Virus record (IMG/VR): IMGVR_UViG_3300045988_033491
Coordinates: 1 to 44,373 of that record
Length of the DNA: 44,373 nucleotides
From: a virus
Strand: one strand, 5' to 3'
The notes under the pieces were generated by a model. That model was not told the origin of the DNA, searched no databases, and worked only from the letters and a program-made list of their open reading frames with translations. The stretch's first letter is position 1; each line of letters opens with the position of its first letter. Made by a program: the position numbers and the translations under genes. Of this stretch, positions 29,657 through 40,092 are shown in pieces.

Positions 29657-29664
29657 CTATTGCT

Positions 29665-29913
29665 CTATTGTCCTATTCCGTTTTCGTACTTTCCGTTTGA
29701 GCAACGAAAATGCGATTGCGTACCACGGGGGTTGGTGTATTCCGTTCCCCCTTTTATAATCTTACCGACCAAACAAACCGGGGCGGGTTTTCCATTTACC
29801 GGAAATTCCGGGTTAAAATGCCGACACGTTCCGCATATCTTTTCGGGACGTTTACCCGGTGCGCATCCGGTCGGCGTATCCGGGATTTTATCGGAACAAC
29901 TGTTTTTACTCAT
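29665..29913 (-). CDS. Small Cys-rich (zinc-binding-like) protein (82 aa).
   Basis: An internal ATG at 29913 of the 131-aa track ORF, giving an 8-nt overlap with the upstream stop. ICGTCRHF...NGKPAPVCL...FRCSNGKYE. Confidence 0.55.
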   Translation of the reverse strand: MSKNSCSDKIPDTPTGCAPGKRPEKICGTCRHFNPEFPVNGKPAPVCLVGKIIKGGTEYTNPRGTQSHFRCSNGKYENGIGQ

Positions 29914-30388
29914 TGCGTCGCCCTCCCTTGCGTTTGTTCTTTCCCCGGCGTTTATCCCGTGGGTTGCGCCGTGGCATTTCGACCCTGTGTATTTCAACTT
30001 TGGAACCGGGGAACATATCGCCGAAAAATTCCGCCATTGCTTGCACCTCCTTTGGAACATCGAACGCCTCCGGTTTCTTGTATTCCCTTTTGCGTTCCGG
30101 TTCCGGTTGACGTTTCATTTGTACATCCGGGCAAATTTCCGTAAGCGGGCAACCCTTACAACTTGCGGGGGTTTCTTTACCACGGTTCAATATGGCGTCC
30201 CGCTTCTTTTCATAATCGGCGGTACGGAACCCGTGCCAATCGTCCCTTTTTGCGCTATTCCGGGCGAACTGTCCCATTGCTTCGATTGCAACGCCCGCCA
30301 ATATGTAATCCGGGGTATCGTTAAACTCTCTTTCTAATCCGTGGCGGTTAATCAATTCCGCCAATTCTTTTGCAAATTTTTGTTTCAT
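29906..30388 (-). CDS. Hypothetical protein with a basic C-terminal tail (160 aa).
   Basis: ATG at 30388 directly preceded by AAAAGAGCG. The C-terminus is RRNPRDKRRGKNKRKGGRRNE. Confidence 0.7.
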   Translation of the reverse strand: MKQKFAKELAELINRHGLEREFNDTPDYILAGVAIEAMGQFARNSAKRDDWHGFRTADYEKKRDAILNRGKETPASCKGCPLTEICPDVQMKRQPEPERKREYKKPEAFDVPKEVQAMAEFFGDMFPGSKVEIHRVEMPRRNPRDKRRGKNKRKGGRRNE

Positions 30389-30395
30389 CGCTCTT

Positions 30396-31418
30396 TTAAT
30401 TTTTAGGTTTATATTCTTGGCAACGGAATATTCCGCACGATTGTTCGGCTTTGAACGCTTCGCAATATCCGTTCCCGTTTATGTCCTCATTGGTAAAATT
30501 GGCACAATCGCCGCAACCGTTGTTCTTTTCGGCAATCTCTTTGGCGTATCCGATTGCGTTCATTGCCTCCCTGTCAATTTCGGCGGCTAACAAAGCCCCG
30601 GCAATTGCCAATCGTTCCTTTTCGGGTTTTGCGGTTGTCTTATGCCACCAATCCCACGACCAACCGGAACGTCCGTAATACTCCGGGTCGTTTTTGATAA
30701 GGGCGGCGGCAACGTCCAACAATTCCCCGGCGGCGTTTTCCCGGTTGTCGTAATCCGGGGTTCGTCCTAACTCAATTTGTCGTTTGCGTTCTGTGGCAAT
30801 TGCACCCATGCCAATACGGGGGAATGTTGGTTTGCTGTCGTAATTTCCAACGGTGTGTATTCCTTTGGGTTCAAATTCCCGGTTAAAATCACGTTCCGGG
30901 CGGGCAATCATTCGTCCGTTAGGTTCCCGGACAATAAACCAACTTTCCGGCGCATCAATGAAAATGCCGTTACCGTCGGCAAAAGTATAAACCGCCCGTC
31001 CGTCCGGGGTTCTCGGCGTCGTCATTGTTCCGCCTCCGGTAAATCTCAACAGGTCGTCCACGTTATCCCGGCGAACTTGGATTGCGTCAACCTCTAACAA
31101 GGTACGACAATACCGGGTTCCCGCCGTGGCGTCCGGGTCAACTAACCGGGTACGGATTTGTTCCGGGTATTCCGTCGGGTCGTATGCCATTTGGAACACA
31201 ATACCCGTGTCCGTAACAACTGTATCTTTGAGGCGTCCGCCCGCACGTCCGGCAACGGCGTTTTTCATCGCCTCAATTTCACGGGACGAACAACCCCAAT
31301 TGTTAACCGTAATTTCGTAACCGTCGTTTTGTTCCTCAACGGCGGGTTCTCGCTTGGTTATATCTCTAATCATAACCAACAATTCCGCATCAAACGGATT
31401 TAATTTGCTTTCTTTCAT
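30396..31418 (-). CDS. Hypothetical multi-domain protein (340 aa) with a C-terminal Cys-rich module.
   Basis: ATG at 31418 preceded by AAAAAAAAAGAGCG. The C-terminus is GCGDCANF...NGNGYCE...CGIFRCQEYKPK. Confidence 0.7.
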   Translation of the reverse strand: MKESKLNPFDAELLVMIRDITKREPAVEEQNDGYEITVNNWGCSSREIEAMKNAVAGRAGGRLKDTVVTDTGIVFQMAYDPTEYPEQIRTRLVDPDATAGTRYCRTLLEVDAIQVRRDNVDDLLRFTGGGTMTTPRTPDGRAVYTFADGNGIFIDAPESWFIVREPNGRMIARPERDFNREFEPKGIHTVGNYDSKPTFPRIGMGAIATERKRQIELGRTPDYDNRENAAGELLDVAAALIKNDPEYYGRSGWSWDWWHKTTAKPEKERLAIAGALLAAEIDREAMNAIGYAKEIAEKNNGCGDCANFTNEDINGNGYCEAFKAEQSCGIFRCQEYKPKN

Positions 31419-31716
31419 CGCTCTTTTTTTTTAATTGTTTAACTGCGTTTTCTTTCGGATATGCTAACCGCCAAAATATTGTCTTTCGGTCGGTTCTGTT
31501 GTACTTATCGCAATGCAAGTGCGCCCCGGTGCAAACGTCCCGTCCAATCCTACAACGGACGCACCGTTGGCAAAACAGGGTTCCGGGACTATCTGCCAAC
31601 CGTTGTGCGGCTTTCGTCCAAACCTCGGCAATAATAACCATATCGTTATAAACGGCACGTTCGCCGGGCTTGTATTCCTTTTCCGGGTCGAATTGCTCCG
31701 GTTGTTTTACTCTCAT
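31390..31716 (-). CDS. Hypothetical Cys-rich protein (108 aa).
   Basis: ATG at 31716 in an ATGA overlap with the upstream stop. FCQRCVRCRIGRDVCTGAHLHC. Confidence 0.6.
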   Translation of the reverse strand: MRVKQPEQFDPEKEYKPGERAVYNDMVIIAEVWTKAAQRLADSPGTLFCQRCVRCRIGRDVCTGAHLHCDKYNRTDRKTIFWRLAYPKENAVKQLKKKSDERKQIKSV

Positions 31717-31904
31717 TTCCCCGCCTCGCTTACATACTCAAACAAAGCGGTAATATTTTCGTTGGTTCCGCTTACCGTTATGCGGGCTTCGCCCTGTCCG
31801 GCAATCCCTAATTCGACAACATCACAATCAAACCGGGGGGCGTTTATTTGCAACATACCCGCCGTTGTGCTGTTTACTATCTCCGTTCTTGTTTCCTTTT
31901 CCAT
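31713..31904 (-). CDS. Hypothetical protein (63 aa).
   Basis: The first ATG is at 31904, preceded by TTGAGCGAT; the track start at 31913 is TTG. Confidence 0.5.
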   Translation of the reverse strand: MEKETRTEIVNSTTAGMLQINAPRFDCDVVELGIAGQGEARITVSGTNENITALFEYVSEAGK

Positions 31905-31986
31905 ATCGCTCAATTATTGAGTACAAAATTAATAATTCCAACCGATATTGTAAGCCGGGGGCGTGGAATTATTCGCCCCCGATTAT

Positions 31987-32322
31987 TCATTTATTGCGTT
32001 TTATCCATATAAACCGGATACCAATGCCAAAACAGAACGCCCGCAATTCAACATCAACGTAACGGTCGTAACCGTTAACGGCGTCAATCGTTAATCCGAA
32101 TTGCCAACTATGATATTTAATATATTCCCGTGCATACAAGGCAAACCCCAACCGCCCAATATGACAACGCAATTGGACGTCGTGGCGTGGCGGGATAATA
32201 TGCAATTCGTTTTGGCAATACTCGGTTCCTGTTTGAATGTCCCGGTATATTCCGGCTCCTATTTCCTCGACTTTGATAACAACTCCCGACGTTGTGCGGG
32301 CTTTCTTAATATTCTGTTTCAT
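31987..32322 (-). CDS. Hypothetical protein (111 aa).
   Basis: ATG at 32322 in an ATGA overlap with the ASCH gene stop. Confidence 0.6.
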   Translation of the reverse strand: MKQNIKKARTTSGVVIKVEEIGAGIYRDIQTGTEYCQNELHIIPPRHDVQLRCHIGRLGFALYAREYIKYHSWQFGLTIDAVNGYDRYVDVELRAFCFGIGIRFIWIKRNK

Positions 32323-32819
32323 TTTTCAACCTGTGTTAATTCGTAACTTGCTTTATCCATAACCATTGCCACGGGATACGGCAAAATACAATCTTTTGAG
32401 TAAACCAAATTGTAAATCCCCAATTGCCCCTTAACAGGAAATTCGATAACCCGGCGGGGGTTCCGCATCAACCACCCGTACCCCTTTGTTATCGCCTTGC
32501 GTTTCTCCGAGGGTATCCGGGTTTGCGCCCAATCAAACGGCGTAAATTCCGACACGGGTTTAATGTCGTATAACTCGACCAACCCCAATGTAACCCCGTT
32601 TTCGTATCCCGGCAAATCCGGGTTCTTTGAGGAACAAATTAACAGGTCGCCCCGGTAATTTGTGTACTTACTCCGTACCTCAATAGATTTTTCCGCAAAA
32701 ACAAATCCGCCGTCCTCAAACGCCGCCGTTACCAACTGCGTTGCATACGGGTTTTTTACGGTTAATGCCCGCCAACGGTCGTGTTGTGCGGGGTTATAAT
32801 CTTTGTTATTAAACTGCAT
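32319..32819 (-). CDS. ASCH (PUA-like fold) domain protein.
   Basis: 166 aa. ALTVKNPYATQLV...KSIEVRSKYTNYRGDLLICSS matches the usual ASCH N-terminal pattern. It overlaps the radical-SAM gene by 11 nt. Confidence 0.65.
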   Translation of the reverse strand: MQFNNKDYNPAQHDRWRALTVKNPYATQLVTAAFEDGGFVFAEKSIEVRSKYTNYRGDLLICSSKNPDLPGYENGVTLGLVELYDIKPVSEFTPFDWAQTRIPSEKRKAITKGYGWLMRNPRRVIEFPVKGQLGIYNLVYSKDCILPYPVAMVMDKASYELTQVEK

Positions 32820-33663
32820 TTTCGTTGTTGTTTTCGTTAAACAAATCGTAATTCGCCGGGACGCAATAACCGGGCAATGTTTCCCGGTCTAACCCCGCCG
32901 CATTAACAATACTATCTTTCCAATATATCCGGGGTTTCCCGTCGTGGGTATTCCAATAATCGGCGACGTCGTAATAAAACCCCAACGTTTCCTTTTTGGT
33001 GTATTTTTGTCCGCTCTGCAACCCTATCTTAAACAGGTCAACGAACGGGTACGACAACGCAATTACAGACAACGCCCGGTCGAACATTCCCGCCGGGATT
33101 GGTTCCACGCTTACAAAGGTACGGAACCCGTGCCGTTTTGCCCTTGCGATTGCTGTTATACGCATCCGGTTTGGGCTTGCTTTAGGTTCCAATTCATCGC
33201 ACCCGGTCAACGTTGCACCAATCGCAATGCGGGATAAATCCCAACCCTCGGACGCCTCGGCAAAATCAATAAACCCGTTTATCCCCTCGGCGCATTTGCT
33301 CAATATCTTAACCGGGACGCCGTGGCGTTGGCATACGCCGACCGCTTGGCGGGTCAACCGTTCCGTTTCCGGCAACAACGGGTCGGTCGTGAATGAAAAG
33401 AACAACCCGGTTTTCTGCAATTCCTCCTTATGCTTCAACAATTCGTTCTTAAAAATGTCGATTGCAAACGGCGGTTCCCGCAACGTCTTTTTCAACTCCG
33501 GGCGATTGCCGCCCAATACTTTTGCGCCACGACCTTTGCGTAAAAAACAGTACGTACAACCATTTGAACAACCGACAAAGAAATTGGCGGCGTTCTCGGC
33601 GTATTCCGCCGCTTTACCCTTTGGGCTATAAATAACCCGTCCGTTTATCGCTCCCATACTCAT
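32809..33663 (-). CDS. Radical SAM protein (SplB/COG1533-like).
   Basis: 284 aa. The CX3CX2C motif GCSNGCTYCF is at residues 31-40 (nt 33547-33570). FFSFTTDP and the overall size fit the DNA-photolyase-like radical SAM group. Confidence 0.7.
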   Translation of the reverse strand: MSMGAINGRVIYSPKGKAAEYAENAANFFVGCSNGCTYCFLRKGRGAKVLGGNRPELKKTLREPPFAIDIFKNELLKHKEELQKTGLFFSFTTDPLLPETERLTRQAVGVCQRHGVPVKILSKCAEGINGFIDFAEASEGWDLSRIAIGATLTGCDELEPKASPNRMRITAIARAKRHGFRTFVSVEPIPAGMFDRALSVIALSYPFVDLFKIGLQSGQKYTKKETLGFYYDVADYWNTHDGKPRIYWKDSIVNAAGLDRETLPGYCVPANYDLFNENNNENAV

Positions 33664-33668
33664 ACAGA

Positions 33669-34085
33669 TTAAAACGGTAAATCGTCTGTTTCGTTTGGTG
33701 CGGGTGCATCCGGGGCGGGCGGCGGCGGGGCTTGCGTTCCGGCTCCGGTCGCTTTCGGGGTCAACATTTCCATATCGGTTGCGACTATTTCGGTAATATA
33801 CCGTTTTACGCCGTTGGCATCGTCATAACTCCGGGTTCTCAATTCCCCCTCAATATACAGTTTATCCCCCTTATGGACGTATTGTTGGGCGACCTTTGCC
33901 AACCCGTTTTGCAACACTATATTATGCCATTCGGTACGCTCCGGGATTTGCCGCCCGTCTTTCGTTGTAAACGCCCGTTTTGTGGTTGCCAACGTGAATT
34001 GCGCCACACAACCGCCGTTGTCGAAAGTCTTAAAATCGGGGTCTTTTCCTGTATTCCCCAATAACGTAACTTTGTTAACACTCAT
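33669..34085 (-). CDS. ssb: Single-stranded DNA-binding protein.
   Basis: 138 aa. OB-fold pattern VNKVTLLGNTGKDPD...TEWHNIVL...GDKLYIEGELRTRSY, a Pro/Ala linker and an acidic tail ending DDLPF. Confidence 0.9.
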   Translation of the reverse strand: MSVNKVTLLGNTGKDPDFKTFDNGGCVAQFTLATTKRAFTTKDGRQIPERTEWHNIVLQNGLAKVAQQYVHKGDKLYIEGELRTRSYDDANGVKRYITEIVATDMEMLTPKATGAGTQAPPPPAPDAPAPNETDDLPF

Positions 34086-34327: not shown

Positions 34328-34681
34328 TTATTTGAACTTAACGCCGTCGAACAAATAGGTTGTTTTTCTATCCGACCAACCCGCCGCCGTGTTTAGGGCT
34401 TTGCGGTCGTCGTCGTGTACAAATTCGCAATACCATGAATTGCCGCCAACATTCGCTTTCTCTTTGAGGCGTACCAATTTCCCGACAATGTACCGGGCAA
34501 ACTTGGCGTAACCGCTCGTTTCGGATATATGAATAATGCGGCGTTCTGCATTTATTTTCGGCAATTCTTCGATTTGCGGGGCTTTCTGTTCTGTTGGGTA
34601 TGTTTGTACCCTTTGGAAATCTCGTTTAATAGAACGCTTTGAAATAGCCCCAAAATCGGGCGTTCTTTTTTTTGTTCTCAT
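34328..34681 (-). CDS. Hypothetical protein (117 aa).
   Basis: The first ATG is at 34681 (MRTKKRTPDF...), overlapping the upstream TAA by 1 nt; the track start at 34693 is TTG. Confidence 0.6.
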   Translation of the reverse strand: MRTKKRTPDFGAISKRSIKRDFQRVQTYPTEQKAPQIEELPKINAERRIIHISETSGYAKFARYIVGKLVRLKEKANVGGNSWYCEFVHDDDRKALNTAAGWSDRKTTYLFDGVKFK

Positions 34682-35085
34682 TATCTTTTGCAATTTGGGT
34701 TTAATTGTCCCATTTTAGACAATGCAACCCGTTTTCGGGTTATCGGGTTATTAGAATTTTGTTTGCGGGTACTCCAACGCAAGTTATTGGCATTGTTGTT
34801 GGCTCGGTCGCCGTCGATATGGTCTATTTCCGGCAAATTTTCCGGGTTCGGAATAAACGCCGCCGCAACTAATCTATGTAACCGAAACGTTTTGCGCTTT
34901 TGGTTTACACATAGAATAACGCCTTTGTAACCCTCTTTGTCTGTATGCGGTTTCAATATTCGCCCTTTCTTGTTGTGGCAATTCTGCAACCGACCATTTA
35001 CAACCATATCTTTAGAACGAACACGCCCGTAATTGCTAACCTCGTAACGGTCGCTATATCCGTCTATCACTTTCCAAACTTCCAT
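34681..35085 (-). CDS. HNH homing endonuclease (NUMOD4 + HNH_3 type).
   Basis: 134 aa. WKVIDGYSDRYEVSNYGRVRS (NUMOD4-like) and HRLVAAAF...IDHIDGDRANNNANNLRWSTRKQN (HNH). Confidence 0.85.
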   Translation of the reverse strand: MEVWKVIDGYSDRYEVSNYGRVRSKDMVVNGRLQNCHNKKGRILKPHTDKEGYKGVILCVNQKRKTFRLHRLVAAAFIPNPENLPEIDHIDGDRANNNANNLRWSTRKQNSNNPITRKRVALSKMGQLNPNCKR

Positions 35086-38477: not shown

Positions 38478-38909
38478 CTATAACGTTCGGGGGTCGTCAA
38501 TAAACGTGTTGTATTCCTCGGCGGCTAACTGTTTGAGCGCTTCGATATGTTCGATTAACTCGGCGTTGCTTAATTCCGCCACGGTGCGCAATTCGTGGGA
38601 ATATTCCCCCGTTTCCTCGTTGACCCGTTCGACGTACATAACCGGGGAAAATTCCCGCAAACGACGTTCGGTTTGTTCCTCTGTCAATCGTTCGCCCGCC
38701 TCCCAAATTGCGTGTTTGAACGTTGGCACAACATAGTTAAAATAATAGCCTTTCAAAGCCTCGGACGAACCGGGCGACGCTACAATGAACCGGGCAATTA
38801 CACGGGAACCCCTCCAACCTTTGAAAAACTCGTTTAATTCTCCCATGTACATTGCCAATCCGCCGTTATTGTTTATCGTCCCCGTCGCTGTTATTTCTCG
38901 CTTTTTCAT
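38478..38909 (-). CDS. Hypothetical protein (143 aa), possibly NinB/Orf-like.
   Basis: ATG at 38909 gives a 44-nt overlap with the upstream gene; alternative ATGs are at 38852 and 38846. The size and context suggest NinB, but I see no motif-level support. Confidence 0.5.
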   Translation of the reverse strand: MKKREITATGTINNNGGLAMYMGELNEFFKGWRGSRVIARFIVASPGSSEALKGYYFNYVVPTFKHAIWEAGERLTEEQTERRLREFSPVMYVERVNEETGEYSHELRTVAELSNAELIEHIEALKQLAAEEYNTFIDDPRTL

Positions 38910-40092
38910 CGGCTAATAACTTTTTCATTGTTTCGTTAAATGCTCCCATTCCGACGGTACGGATAAACGCCCGTTCGCTCGACGAATACCCGGTTGCGAC
39001 CTTATCCAAAACGGACGCAAACAATACGGTAAATTTTCCCGGCTCCCAATCCCCGGCGTTGTGCATCCGGTCGATAACGTGCGCCCGCAATCGTTCGTTC
39101 ACTTTTGCGGCTTTTTTCCGGGCGTTTTCCCGGTCGTTCCAAAGGCTTGTTAATTGGGTTTGCAGATTGGCGAAAAACAACGGCATTTTCAGAACGTCCG
39201 CAATACTCAAATCCGCCACGGGAACCGGGACGGCGGCGATTGCTTCGTTGGCTTTCTTTTGGGCTTTCCCGCCCTTTTTCATTGCCTCCGTTAATTCCTT
39301 TGTTGCCTCTGCAATCTCATTAACCCCGGCGGCGGTTCCTTTGTTAATACCATAACCGAACAATGCAAAATCCCCTTTTGCGGGGTCATTGGGGAATATC
39401 TCGGCGAAACGGTCGGTTATCTCAATAGCGGTGCGCAAATCCGGTGTCCGGCGTGTTGTCAATCCCAACCGTATTGCCTGTTTATGTACGTGGGTATCTA
39501 ACGGGATTATCAAATTGCGGGGGTCGCATACGTCCCACAATCCAAAGTCAACCGGGGAACTTTTACGGCACATCCAACGCAAAAACAGACACAACCGTTT
39601 GCAAGCGGATTGCGTTTCAAAATCCGGGATACCATTAACGGAACCGAACAACGATTGCAACGTTGCCAATGCCGTTTCCCCGTTCGTTTCGTGCGCTTTC
39701 TTTATTGCCGCTTCCATGCTTTCCGCCGACGTGTAAACATCGTACAAACGGGCGCAAAGGTCGGCAAAATCTCCATACGTAAACGTTCGGTAAAAACTTT
39801 CCTTACTGCCTTTGTATTGTTCCCATTCCGGGGCGGCTCCGGGCGCAACGTTGTTGCCGACAATGTAATGATACGGTTCGCCCTTGAAAATTTCCCGGTC
39901 TATAAAATCCGCCTTTTTGATAATCTGTTTACGTGCGCCCCACGCAATCCACGCCGTAACAAATGCGCTTATCTCAATGTTTACCCGGCTATCGTAACGG
40001 TGCGGAATTTGCACCGGGTCGGATTTAATAAACTCGGCGGTTTCGTATTGTTCCGCCCAACGCTTCAAATTTTCGTTCAATGTAAATGCCAT
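38866..40092 (-). CDS. DUF2400/TIGR02757-like protein fused to a ~140-aa C-terminal extension.
   Basis: 408 aa. FIKSDPVQIPHRY, ACKRLCLFLRWMCR, GLWD...LIIPLDTHVH and DPAKGDFALFGYGI match my recollection of the TIGR02757 family. Residues ~270-408 have no counterpart that I know. Confidence 0.55.
   Translation of the reverse strand: MAFTLNENLKRWAEQYETAEFIKSDPVQIPHRYDSRVNIEISAFVTAWIAWGARKQIIKKADFIDREIFKGEPYHYIVGNNVAPGAAPEWEQYKGSKESFYRTFTYGDFADLCARLYDVYTSAESMEAAIKKAHETNGETALATLQSLFGSVNGIPDFETQSACKRLCLFLRWMCRKSSPVDFGLWDVCDPRNLIIPLDTHVHKQAIRLGLTTRRTPDLRTAIEITDRFAEIFPNDPAKGDFALFGYGINKGTAAGVNEIAEATKELTEAMKKGGKAQKKANEAIAAVPVPVADLSIADVLKMPLFFANLQTQLTSLWNDRENARKKAAKVNERLRAHVIDRMHNAGDWEPGKFTVLFASVLDKVATGYSSSERAFIRTVGMGAFNETMKKLLADEKARNNSDGDDKQ

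Follow-up and report, generated by a model that had tools for sequence, protein, structure and literature searches.

A radical-SAM gene and an ASCH gene that overlap in a PDS1-like gut phage of Bacteroidales are separable neighbours and not an obligate module

Do two phage genes with overlapping reading frames necessarily work together? This question is raised by IMG/VR virus record IMGVR_UViG_3300045988_033491, the complete 44,373 nucleotides (nt) of which are referred to here as the window, and in which a gene for a radical-SAM (S-adenosylmethionine) enzyme of 284 amino acids (aa) is followed by an overlapping gene for a 166-aa protein with an ASCH (ASC-1 homology, PUA-like) domain. A first-pass annotation of this DNA had suggested that the two genes form a module, in which a radical-SAM catalyst would be coupled to an ASCH reader of modified bases. 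Both protein identities are upheld, and an obligate module is ruled out by the natural variation of the locus. The interpretation favoured here, to which about an even chance is given, is that these are two independently acting accessory genes in the early or replication module of a PDS1-like siphophage.

The window is a PDS1-like Bacteroidales siphophage from the gut. Its genome of about 44 kb carries nearly all genes on the minus strand, where the gene for a single-strand DNA-binding protein (ssb) is followed, in the order of transcription, by the 284-aa, 166-aa and 111-aa open reading frames (ORFs) and then by ORFs of 66, 108 and 340 aa (Table 1). The DNA of the region is 81-85% identical to that of Alistipes phage AS73P1, Bacteroides phages BKO1-3 and C1_85S2P, and Parabacteroides phages PDS1 and PD491P1, while one IMG/VR contig is 100% identical to it at the protein level. 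The GenBank records of the relatives already name the first gene "radical SAM enzyme" or "putative radical SAM superfamily protein" and the second "ASC-1 homology domain protein" or "ASCH domain-containing protein"; the present analysis refines these identities. No paper describing a radical-SAM and ASCH module was found in the literature, nor was a function given there for COG1533, DUF5131 or DUF2400. In agreement with the earlier annotation, no characterised function was found for either protein.

Re-derived from the sequence, all coordinates of that annotation hold, including the position of the CX3CX2C motif, and so do the 11 nt shared by the radical-SAM and ASCH genes, the ATGA coupling of the latter to the 111-aa ORF, and the adjoining ssb gene. 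The TAA stop codon of the 284-aa ORF falls within the opening 11 nt of the ASCH ORF, and the overlap is real because all 46 homologues of the ASCH protein share its start (M1, Q2). Initiation at another ATG, two codons into the radical-SAM ORF, gives a 282-aa form, which is the one used by public gene callers. Overlapping junctions are not exceptional in this genome, as they account for 20 of the window's 53 junctions between genes on the same strand, another 11-nt overlap being found between ssb and orf65 (the names orf65, orf66, orf108, orf111, orf121, orf175 and orf340 denote ORFs in or near the locus). Under the favoured interpretation, the overlap of the radical-SAM and ASCH genes is a product of the tight packing typical of this genome and not of an obligatory co-function.

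Gene order from orf175 to orf340 is the same in about 80 IMG/VR contigs of the PDS1-like clade, and the adjacency of the radical-SAM and ASCH genes within this clade is therefore uninformative. The junction between them is variable. It is overlapping, as in the window, in 34 of 79 close-relative contigs. The remaining 45 have lost the overlap, and a spacer of 56-315 nt, with room for an extra gene, separates the two genes; its length is 56-65 nt (6 contigs), 162-168 nt (26 contigs) or 270-315 nt (13 contigs). At about 300 nt, the spacer corresponds to the Lar-like restriction-alleviation gene annotated in BKO1-3 (locus L001, 7304-7624). The 162-nt spacer encodes an ORF of about 60 aa with an acidic tail (MKRNEIRVEVPADCQ...NDENEDEPDNKK), read by eye, which occurs at locus L029 (6832-7012) and in 25 other relatives; a terminator and promoter scan of this spacer gave nothing above the shuffled expectation. 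Each time, the inserted gene, whether the acidic-tail ORF or the Lar-like gene, overlaps both the radical-SAM and the ASCH genes. The junction is an insertion hotspot in these relatives and, given its variable spacer, translational coupling is not conserved.

Isolated phages also carry one gene without the other. In Elizabethkingia phage TCUEAP2 (OK632025.1, 3200-6150), which infects an aerobic host of the Flavobacteriales, the syntenic block is found at 36-69% protein identity in the order orf175, orf121, ssb, ASCH (63% identical), orf111, orf66, orf108 and orf340; no radical-SAM gene is present anywhere in this genome, and a 147-nt ORF stands at its expected place. In the phage genome collection, the ASCH subfamily is encoded by 13 genomes, 6 with the radical-SAM gene and 7 without it, while two phage records contain the radical-SAM gene without an ASCH gene of this subfamily. 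Among the genomes with the ASCH gene alone are those of four Parabacteroides phages and of phages that infect aerobic hosts, Croceibacter (P2559S) and Elizabethkingia (TCUEAP2). That phages of aerobes should lack an oxygen-labile enzyme is suggestive, although the four Parabacteroides phages also lack the radical-SAM gene.

Distant homologues were surveyed at 160 loci with radical-SAM proteins about 45-50% identical to that of the window, located in prophage-like regions of bacterial genomes and in IMG/VR, which form 115 clusters at 85% identity, hereafter lineages. An ASCH homologue is encoded within six genes in 14 of the 115 lineages (12%) and is adjacent, either upstream or downstream, in 5 (4%); the other 101 have none within this distance. 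In the reverse direction, a radical-SAM gene was found within 8 kb of only 3 of 80 canonical-ASCH loci. No fusion of the two domains occurs among the homologues listed, the longest of which has 322 aa, and at locus P0056, as judged from precomputed gene calls and Pfam matches, the radical-SAM gene stands last in a module that includes a helicase, and no ASCH gene lies nearby. A small control (31-38 loci) was assembled from loci anchored on a Holliday-junction resolvase in the same kinds of phage. An ASCH gene is present within 3 kb at 1 of 31 control loci that lack the radical-SAM gene versus 15 of 115 radical-SAM loci (Fisher p = 0.19). Three further neighbour families with a KxxT/ExR motif (phrog_8581, 874 and 625) were considered as cryptic ASCH proteins and rejected: their hhalign probability is below 3%, Pfam gives one match at E 0.14, and profile searches of the Protein Data Bank (PDB) lend no support. 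Counts are given with and without these motif-only candidates, the addition of which results in 9 of 31 control loci versus 42 of 115 (p = 0.53); over all control comparisons, p = 0.19-0.56. The proposal of a dedicated catalyst and reader is thus not supported, given the lost overlap, the genomes with the ASCH gene alone and a co-occurrence outside the clade that does not differ significantly from the control.

Near the distant radical-SAM genes, several other accessory families reach a frequency similar to that of ASCH, namely two unknown families (13 and 12 of the 115 lineages), DUF4406 and a C5-methyltransferase-like family (12 each), VRR-NUC (11), and YopX, a Tad2-like protein and Holliday-junction resolvase (9 each). 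Proteins in which a crAss001_48-related domain is joined to a Tad2-like (Thoeris anti-defence 2) domain are encoded within 2-6 genes of the radical-SAM gene in 9 lineages (L141, 9736-10446, and eight other distant loci). Their recurrence characterises the surroundings of the distant genes as a region of accessory and anti-defence functions. Another radical-SAM-like protein, unrelated to the one studied and about 285 aa long (motif CIRKCKWC; E 0.009 against Pfam Radical_SAM), was observed at locus L217 (3765-4625) and seven other loci, and lies within 1-5 genes of the studied gene in 8 of the lineages.

The membership of the 284-aa protein in the radical-SAM superfamily, asserted in the earlier annotation, is shown by its motif, its predicted fold and its profile matches. 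In an alignment of 64 homologues, the cluster cysteines C32, C36 and C39 never vary, and neither do G31, S33 and Y38; the alignment contains no fourth conserved cysteine. The window protein scores 25.2 bits against Pfam Radical_SAM (PF04055), below the cut-off of 29.5, and all 64 aligned members match this profile at E <= 0.01 (best 1.4e-11). The spore photoproduct lyase (SPL) profile is matched by 34 of the 64 (best 6e-6) and DUF5131 weakly by 31 (best 2e-9); the window protein itself has no match to SPL (PF20903) at E <= 0.1. The NCBIfam model PA0069/COG1533 (NF033668) is matched partially, with residues 24-201 aligned to profile positions 59-237 (E 1.3e-11), and at 44.1 bits against a cut-off of 360 this profile match shows homology and not family membership. 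The AlphaFold2 model is of high quality (pLDDT 93, pTM 0.91) and consists of alternating strands and helices predicted to form a partial (beta/alpha)6 TIM barrel. In the PDB, Foldseek retrieves SuiB (E 4e-6, TMq 0.54) and SPL (4fhf; E 8e-6, TMq 0.52), as well as MgmA and SkfB, and in BFVD only generic or unnamed viral radical-SAM proteins. Searched with the family profile, PDB sequences return SPL as the sole match (E 0.04), which is confined mostly to the cluster motif; single-sequence PDB searches gave nothing meaningful for either the radical-SAM or the ASCH protein. PADLOC contains no defence-system model that matches the radical-SAM, ASCH or orf111 proteins or five neighbouring ones.

A large protein database holds 1225 relatives of the radical-SAM protein, many of which carry in IMG the COG1533 name "DNA repair photolyase", and among these relatives are precomputed matches to Radical_SAM, SPL (PF20903) and DUF5131 (PF07505). 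A phage homologue of 29% identity is annotated as PA0069 family. The membership tests of SPL, PA0069/COG1533 and DUF5131 place the family inside none of them, and judged by its profiles it is an uncharacterised, mainly phage- or prophage-borne branch near the SPL/COG1533/DUF5131 group. It comprises at least 115 lineages (85% identity) among the 160 loci sampled, with several hundred matches in IMG/VR.

The likeness to SPL (SplB, PF20903, 4fhf) consists of a single CX3CX2C motif, an aromatic residue before the last cysteine (CTYC here, CHYC in SPL) and the partial TIM barrel. However, the phage protein is about 60-85 aa shorter, and the structural match has a TMt of 0.44, only about 240 columns being aligned at a root-mean-square deviation of 9.6 and 15% identity. 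SPL also has a conserved cysteine outside the cluster motif (C140/141) that donates a hydrogen atom; this residue has no conserved equivalent in the present family, which is moreover phage-encoded in non-sporulating Bacteroidota. COG1533/PA0069/MJ0683-like proteins are the best match among curated families, although the C-terminal third of the profile is left unmatched. COG1533 genes are regulated by the SOS response in Bacteroidetes and other bacteria (PMC8565304), whereas the genes studied here belong to replication modules of phages and prophages rather than to regulons of the chromosomal SOS response. DUF5131 (phage Gp37/Gp68, Megacluster-5-2) is likewise phage-associated and was placed by RadicalSAM.org in one megacluster with SPL and MJ0683-like proteins (PMC9477430), but its motif is CX6CX2C, and the window protein does not match it. 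The characterised radical-SAM enzymes that act on DNA are SPL and gp53 of Pseudomonas phage M6, an SPL-like isomerase of thymidine hypermodification (PMC8989533). Unlike the protein described here, gp53 has its motif near residue 125 rather than at residue 32; the two share no tblastn similarity, and the kinase, pyrophosphorylase and pyridoxal phosphate (PLP) enzyme genes that accompany gp53 were not found among the 29 window ORFs scanned with Pfam.

DNA is the likeliest candidate for the substrate of the radical-SAM enzyme. This assignment rests on its relatives (SPL, COG1533, DUF5131), on the constant replication-module context, on the precedent of M6 gp53, and on the lack of an auxiliary cluster or a peptide-recognition domain; since the three cluster ligands are the only conserved cysteines, an auxiliary cluster is not expected. 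The protein is a single domain of 284 aa with no cysteines of SPASM, twitch or other auxiliary-cluster type and no B12 or RRE domain. A serious rival, unlikely on balance, is that the enzyme acts on something other than DNA, namely on a peptide or protein, as a maturase of ribosomally synthesised and post-translationally modified peptides or a radical activase would, or on tRNA, rRNA or a small metabolite. The fold comparison points in this direction, since the best Foldseek matches of the model include SuiB and SkfB, which modify peptides, and MgmA, a protein methylase, with SuiB at the top, and since the sequence similarity to SPL hardly extends beyond the cluster motif. The authors of the PDS1 study also link gp34 to quorum-sensing chemistry, mentioning it only in a speculation on autoinducers (PMC10773633). 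However, the domain composition just described speaks against this rival, the neighbours are genes of replication, recombination and anti-restriction with no recurring precursor-peptide or biosynthetic genes among them, and the sequence profiles group the family with SPL, DUF5131 and COG1533.

The 166-aa protein is a genuine ASCH domain protein, as had been proposed. Taken alone it scores 15.7 bits against Pfam ASCH (PF04266), below the cut-off of 21.2 (E 0.025), and two of its close homologues carry precomputed PF04266 matches. It belongs with phrog_3193 (E 4e-26), and hhalign aligns its family with a canonical phage ASCH family of the same PHROG, one member of which exceeds the Pfam cut-off, at 98% probability (E 2e-13). 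In a PDB profile search, the ASCH domain of human ASC-1/TRIP4 is retrieved at E 3e-15 by the canonical phage family and at E 8e-4 by the family of the window. The characteristic octapeptide aligns with GIKDIENR of canonical ASCH proteins; K44, I46, E47, V48 and R49 are invariant in the 46 homologues, while the first position is G, A or S and the canonical glycine is an alanine in this phage. Relative to TRIP4 (ASC-1), EOLA1, Thermus thermophilus TTHA0113 and Escherichia coli YqfB, to which it is homologous at the profile level, the protein has the same domain size and retains the Lys, Glu and Arg residues, but differs in a 17-residue N-terminal extension, inserts and the Gly to Ala change. A 2026 bioRxiv preprint describes the deacetylation of N4-acetylcytidine (ac4C) in tRNA by 19 ASCH proteins, TRIP4-ASCH and EOLA1 among them, and reports the Lys and Glu of the motif to be essential for this reaction in TthASCH, EOLA1 and TRIP4-ASCH (10.64898/2026.02.27.708502). 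The role of a reader assigned in the first-pass annotation is thus not the best guess: because the Lys-Glu-Arg motif of ASCH amidohydrolases is kept, an enzyme is likelier than a passive reader of a radical-SAM product, and judging from its motif the protein looks like a potentially catalytic member of the TRIP4/EOLA1 'GKER' type.

The functional pair proposed in the first-pass annotation, whether writer and reader or writer and eraser, in which the radical-SAM enzyme would install or repair a base modification in DNA or RNA and the coupled ASCH protein would recognise or process that base for modification or counter-defence, is quite unlikely. It finds some encouragement in the adjoining and overlapping genes of the window and their synteny in all of the roughly 80 close relatives, in the insertion of Lar-like anti-restriction genes at exactly this junction, and in the Tad2-like and methyltransferase genes that are common near the distant loci; ASCH is also nominally the commonest neighbour family of the distant radical-SAM homologues, with an odds ratio above 1 relative to the control. 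Yet the synteny extends over the clade from ssb to orf340 and says nothing of this pair in particular, the overlap is lost in more than half of the close relatives, the ASCH gene occurs alone in TCUEAP2 and in the majority of the isolate genomes that carry it, most distant lineages lack it, the reverse association is rarer still, and the enrichment is not significant. Weaker again is a DNA hypermodification pathway like that of M6 gp53, with a non-canonical base in virion DNA: its arguments are gp53 itself as an SPL-like phage radical-SAM protein acting on DNA (PMC8989533), a DUF2400/TIGR02757 protein of this phage (a glycosylase/lyase in PDS1) and a MazG-like gene listed in relatives, and it is made improbable by the absence, recognised already in the first-pass annotation, of hydroxymethylase, kinase and glycosyltransferase genes, Pfam finding neither these nor a 5-hydroxymethyldeoxyuridine kinase, aGPT-Pplase or PLP enzyme in 29 window ORFs and the relatives' annotations being equally devoid of them, by the lack of tblastn similarity to M6-type phages, and by the lack of a conserved partner of the radical-SAM gene across the 115 lineages.

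Under the favoured interpretation of two independent genes, the radical-SAM enzyme would be a stand-alone protein with one [4Fe-4S] cluster bound by C32, C36 and C39. Reductive cleavage of S-adenosylmethionine would yield a 5'-deoxyadenosyl radical that takes a hydrogen atom from the substrate, and the enzyme may serve in anaerobic hosts either in repair, through a reaction of the lyase or isomerase type, or in the modification of DNA after its replication. The ASCH protein would be an amidohydrolase of the N4-acyl-cytidine type, acting for instance on ac4C in tRNA, or a nucleic-acid-binding enzyme, and the two genes would stand side by side in a variable part of the replication module that is rich in anti-restriction genes. 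Several observations weigh against this interpretation. The best fold match of the radical-SAM model is the peptide-modifying SuiB, with TM-scores of about 0.5, the window protein falls below both the Pfam and the NCBIfam cut-offs, and we infer its DNA substrate from relatives and context. The ASCH activity is extrapolated from a preprint whose proteins do not come from phages, the first glycine of the motif is replaced, and the AlphaFold2 model of the protein, built with 46 homologues, has a pLDDT of 52.9 and is too unreliable for use. The odds ratio for an ASCH gene near the radical-SAM gene is about 3-4.5, and a weak association is possible because the control is small; if phrog_8581, 874 and 625 were ASCH-like, the radical-SAM lineages with such a neighbour would number 41 of 115, at a similar control rate of 29%. 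A bolder version, according to which a widespread SPL-like branch specific to Bacteroidota phages acts on phage or host DNA in anaerobic hosts, either on lesions arising in tightly packed virion DNA or to create a new post-replicative modification, and the ASCH protein independently strips N4-acetyl or N4-acyl groups from cytidines in host tRNA or other nucleic acid, is rather unlikely in its full extent.

The 111-aa ORF downstream of the ASCH gene is not the ORFan it had been called, since in about 80 contigs of related phages tblastn finds a homologue of 47-67% identity at the corresponding place, and a further one of 49% identity is encoded by Elizabethkingia phage TCUEAP2. No Pfam, PHROG, NCBIfam or PADLOC family was matched by this ORF.

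Table 1. Positions of the features of the radical-SAM/ASCH locus in the window
Feature	Coordinates	Strand	Basis and remarks
ssb, single-strand DNA-binding protein	33669-34085	minus	Pfam SSB E 3.5e-30 (104 bits), phrog_44 E 9e-45; directly upstream of the radical-SAM gene
Radical-SAM enzyme, 284 aa	32809-33663	minus	Motif, AlphaFold2 fold, Pfam/NCBIfam
CX3CX2C codons C32-S-N-G-C36-T-Y-C39 (within GCSNGCTYCF)	33547-33570	minus	Eight codons, cluster-binding motif
11-nt overlap of radical-SAM stop and ASCH start	32809-32819	minus	ORF coordinates
ASCH (ASC-1 homology, PUA-like) domain protein, 166 aa, phrog_3193	32319-32819	minus	Profile homology
ASCH octapeptide codons A42-E-K44-S-I-E47-V-R49 (GxKxxExR)	32673-32696	minus	Alignment of homologues
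111-aa ORF, ATGA overlap with ASCH stop	31987-32322	minus	ORF coordinates; homologues in relatives

Several other genes of the window were inspected. The minus-strand gene 38866-40092 encodes a 408-aa protein in which a full-length DUF2400/TIGR02757 domain (Pfam E 2e-63; NCBIfam 218 bits versus a cut-off of 139) is extended by about 160 aa at the C-terminus. Its homologue in PDS1 is annotated 'N-glycosylase/DNA lyase', and neither a sequence relative in the PDB nor literature on its function was found; possibly it is a DNA-base-directed enzyme in the same phage. A homing-endonuclease gene with NUMOD4 and HNH_3 domains is located at 34681-35085 (minus strand). In relatives it lies upstream of orf121, lies between the ASCH gene and orf111, or is absent, which is typical of a mobile element. 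The 340-aa protein (30396-31418, minus strand) has a homologue in PDS1 annotated MazG, whereas Pfam finds no MazG domain here and only weak HIPIP-like matches to its cysteine-rich C-terminus (CGDCANF...CEAF...CGIFRC). Its identity to the proteins of relatives, 33-75%, is much below that of the neighbouring genes. The plus-strand ORFs 29660-30337 (225 aa) and 31513-31920 (135 aa) are antisense to conserved minus-strand genes (29906-30388, 31390-31716 and 31713-31913) and are almost certainly spurious.

For the annotation of phages, the locus calls for caution, as overlapping frames in a compact phage genome are no evidence that two genes function together; naturally occurring insertions and deletions demonstrate that the radical-SAM and ASCH genes are separable. 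The result for the ASCH protein ties a common phage gene to a recently proposed ac4C-eraser activity. If the radical-SAM enzyme acts on DNA, it would add a large family of gut phages beside SPL and M6 gp53, and a DNA-acting radical-SAM enzyme together with an independent ASCH deacylase would amount to two new phage nucleic-acid chemistries at one locus. A DNA substrate of the radical-SAM enzyme would also open a way to study how the phages of anaerobic Bacteroidales keep their DNA intact or conceal it.

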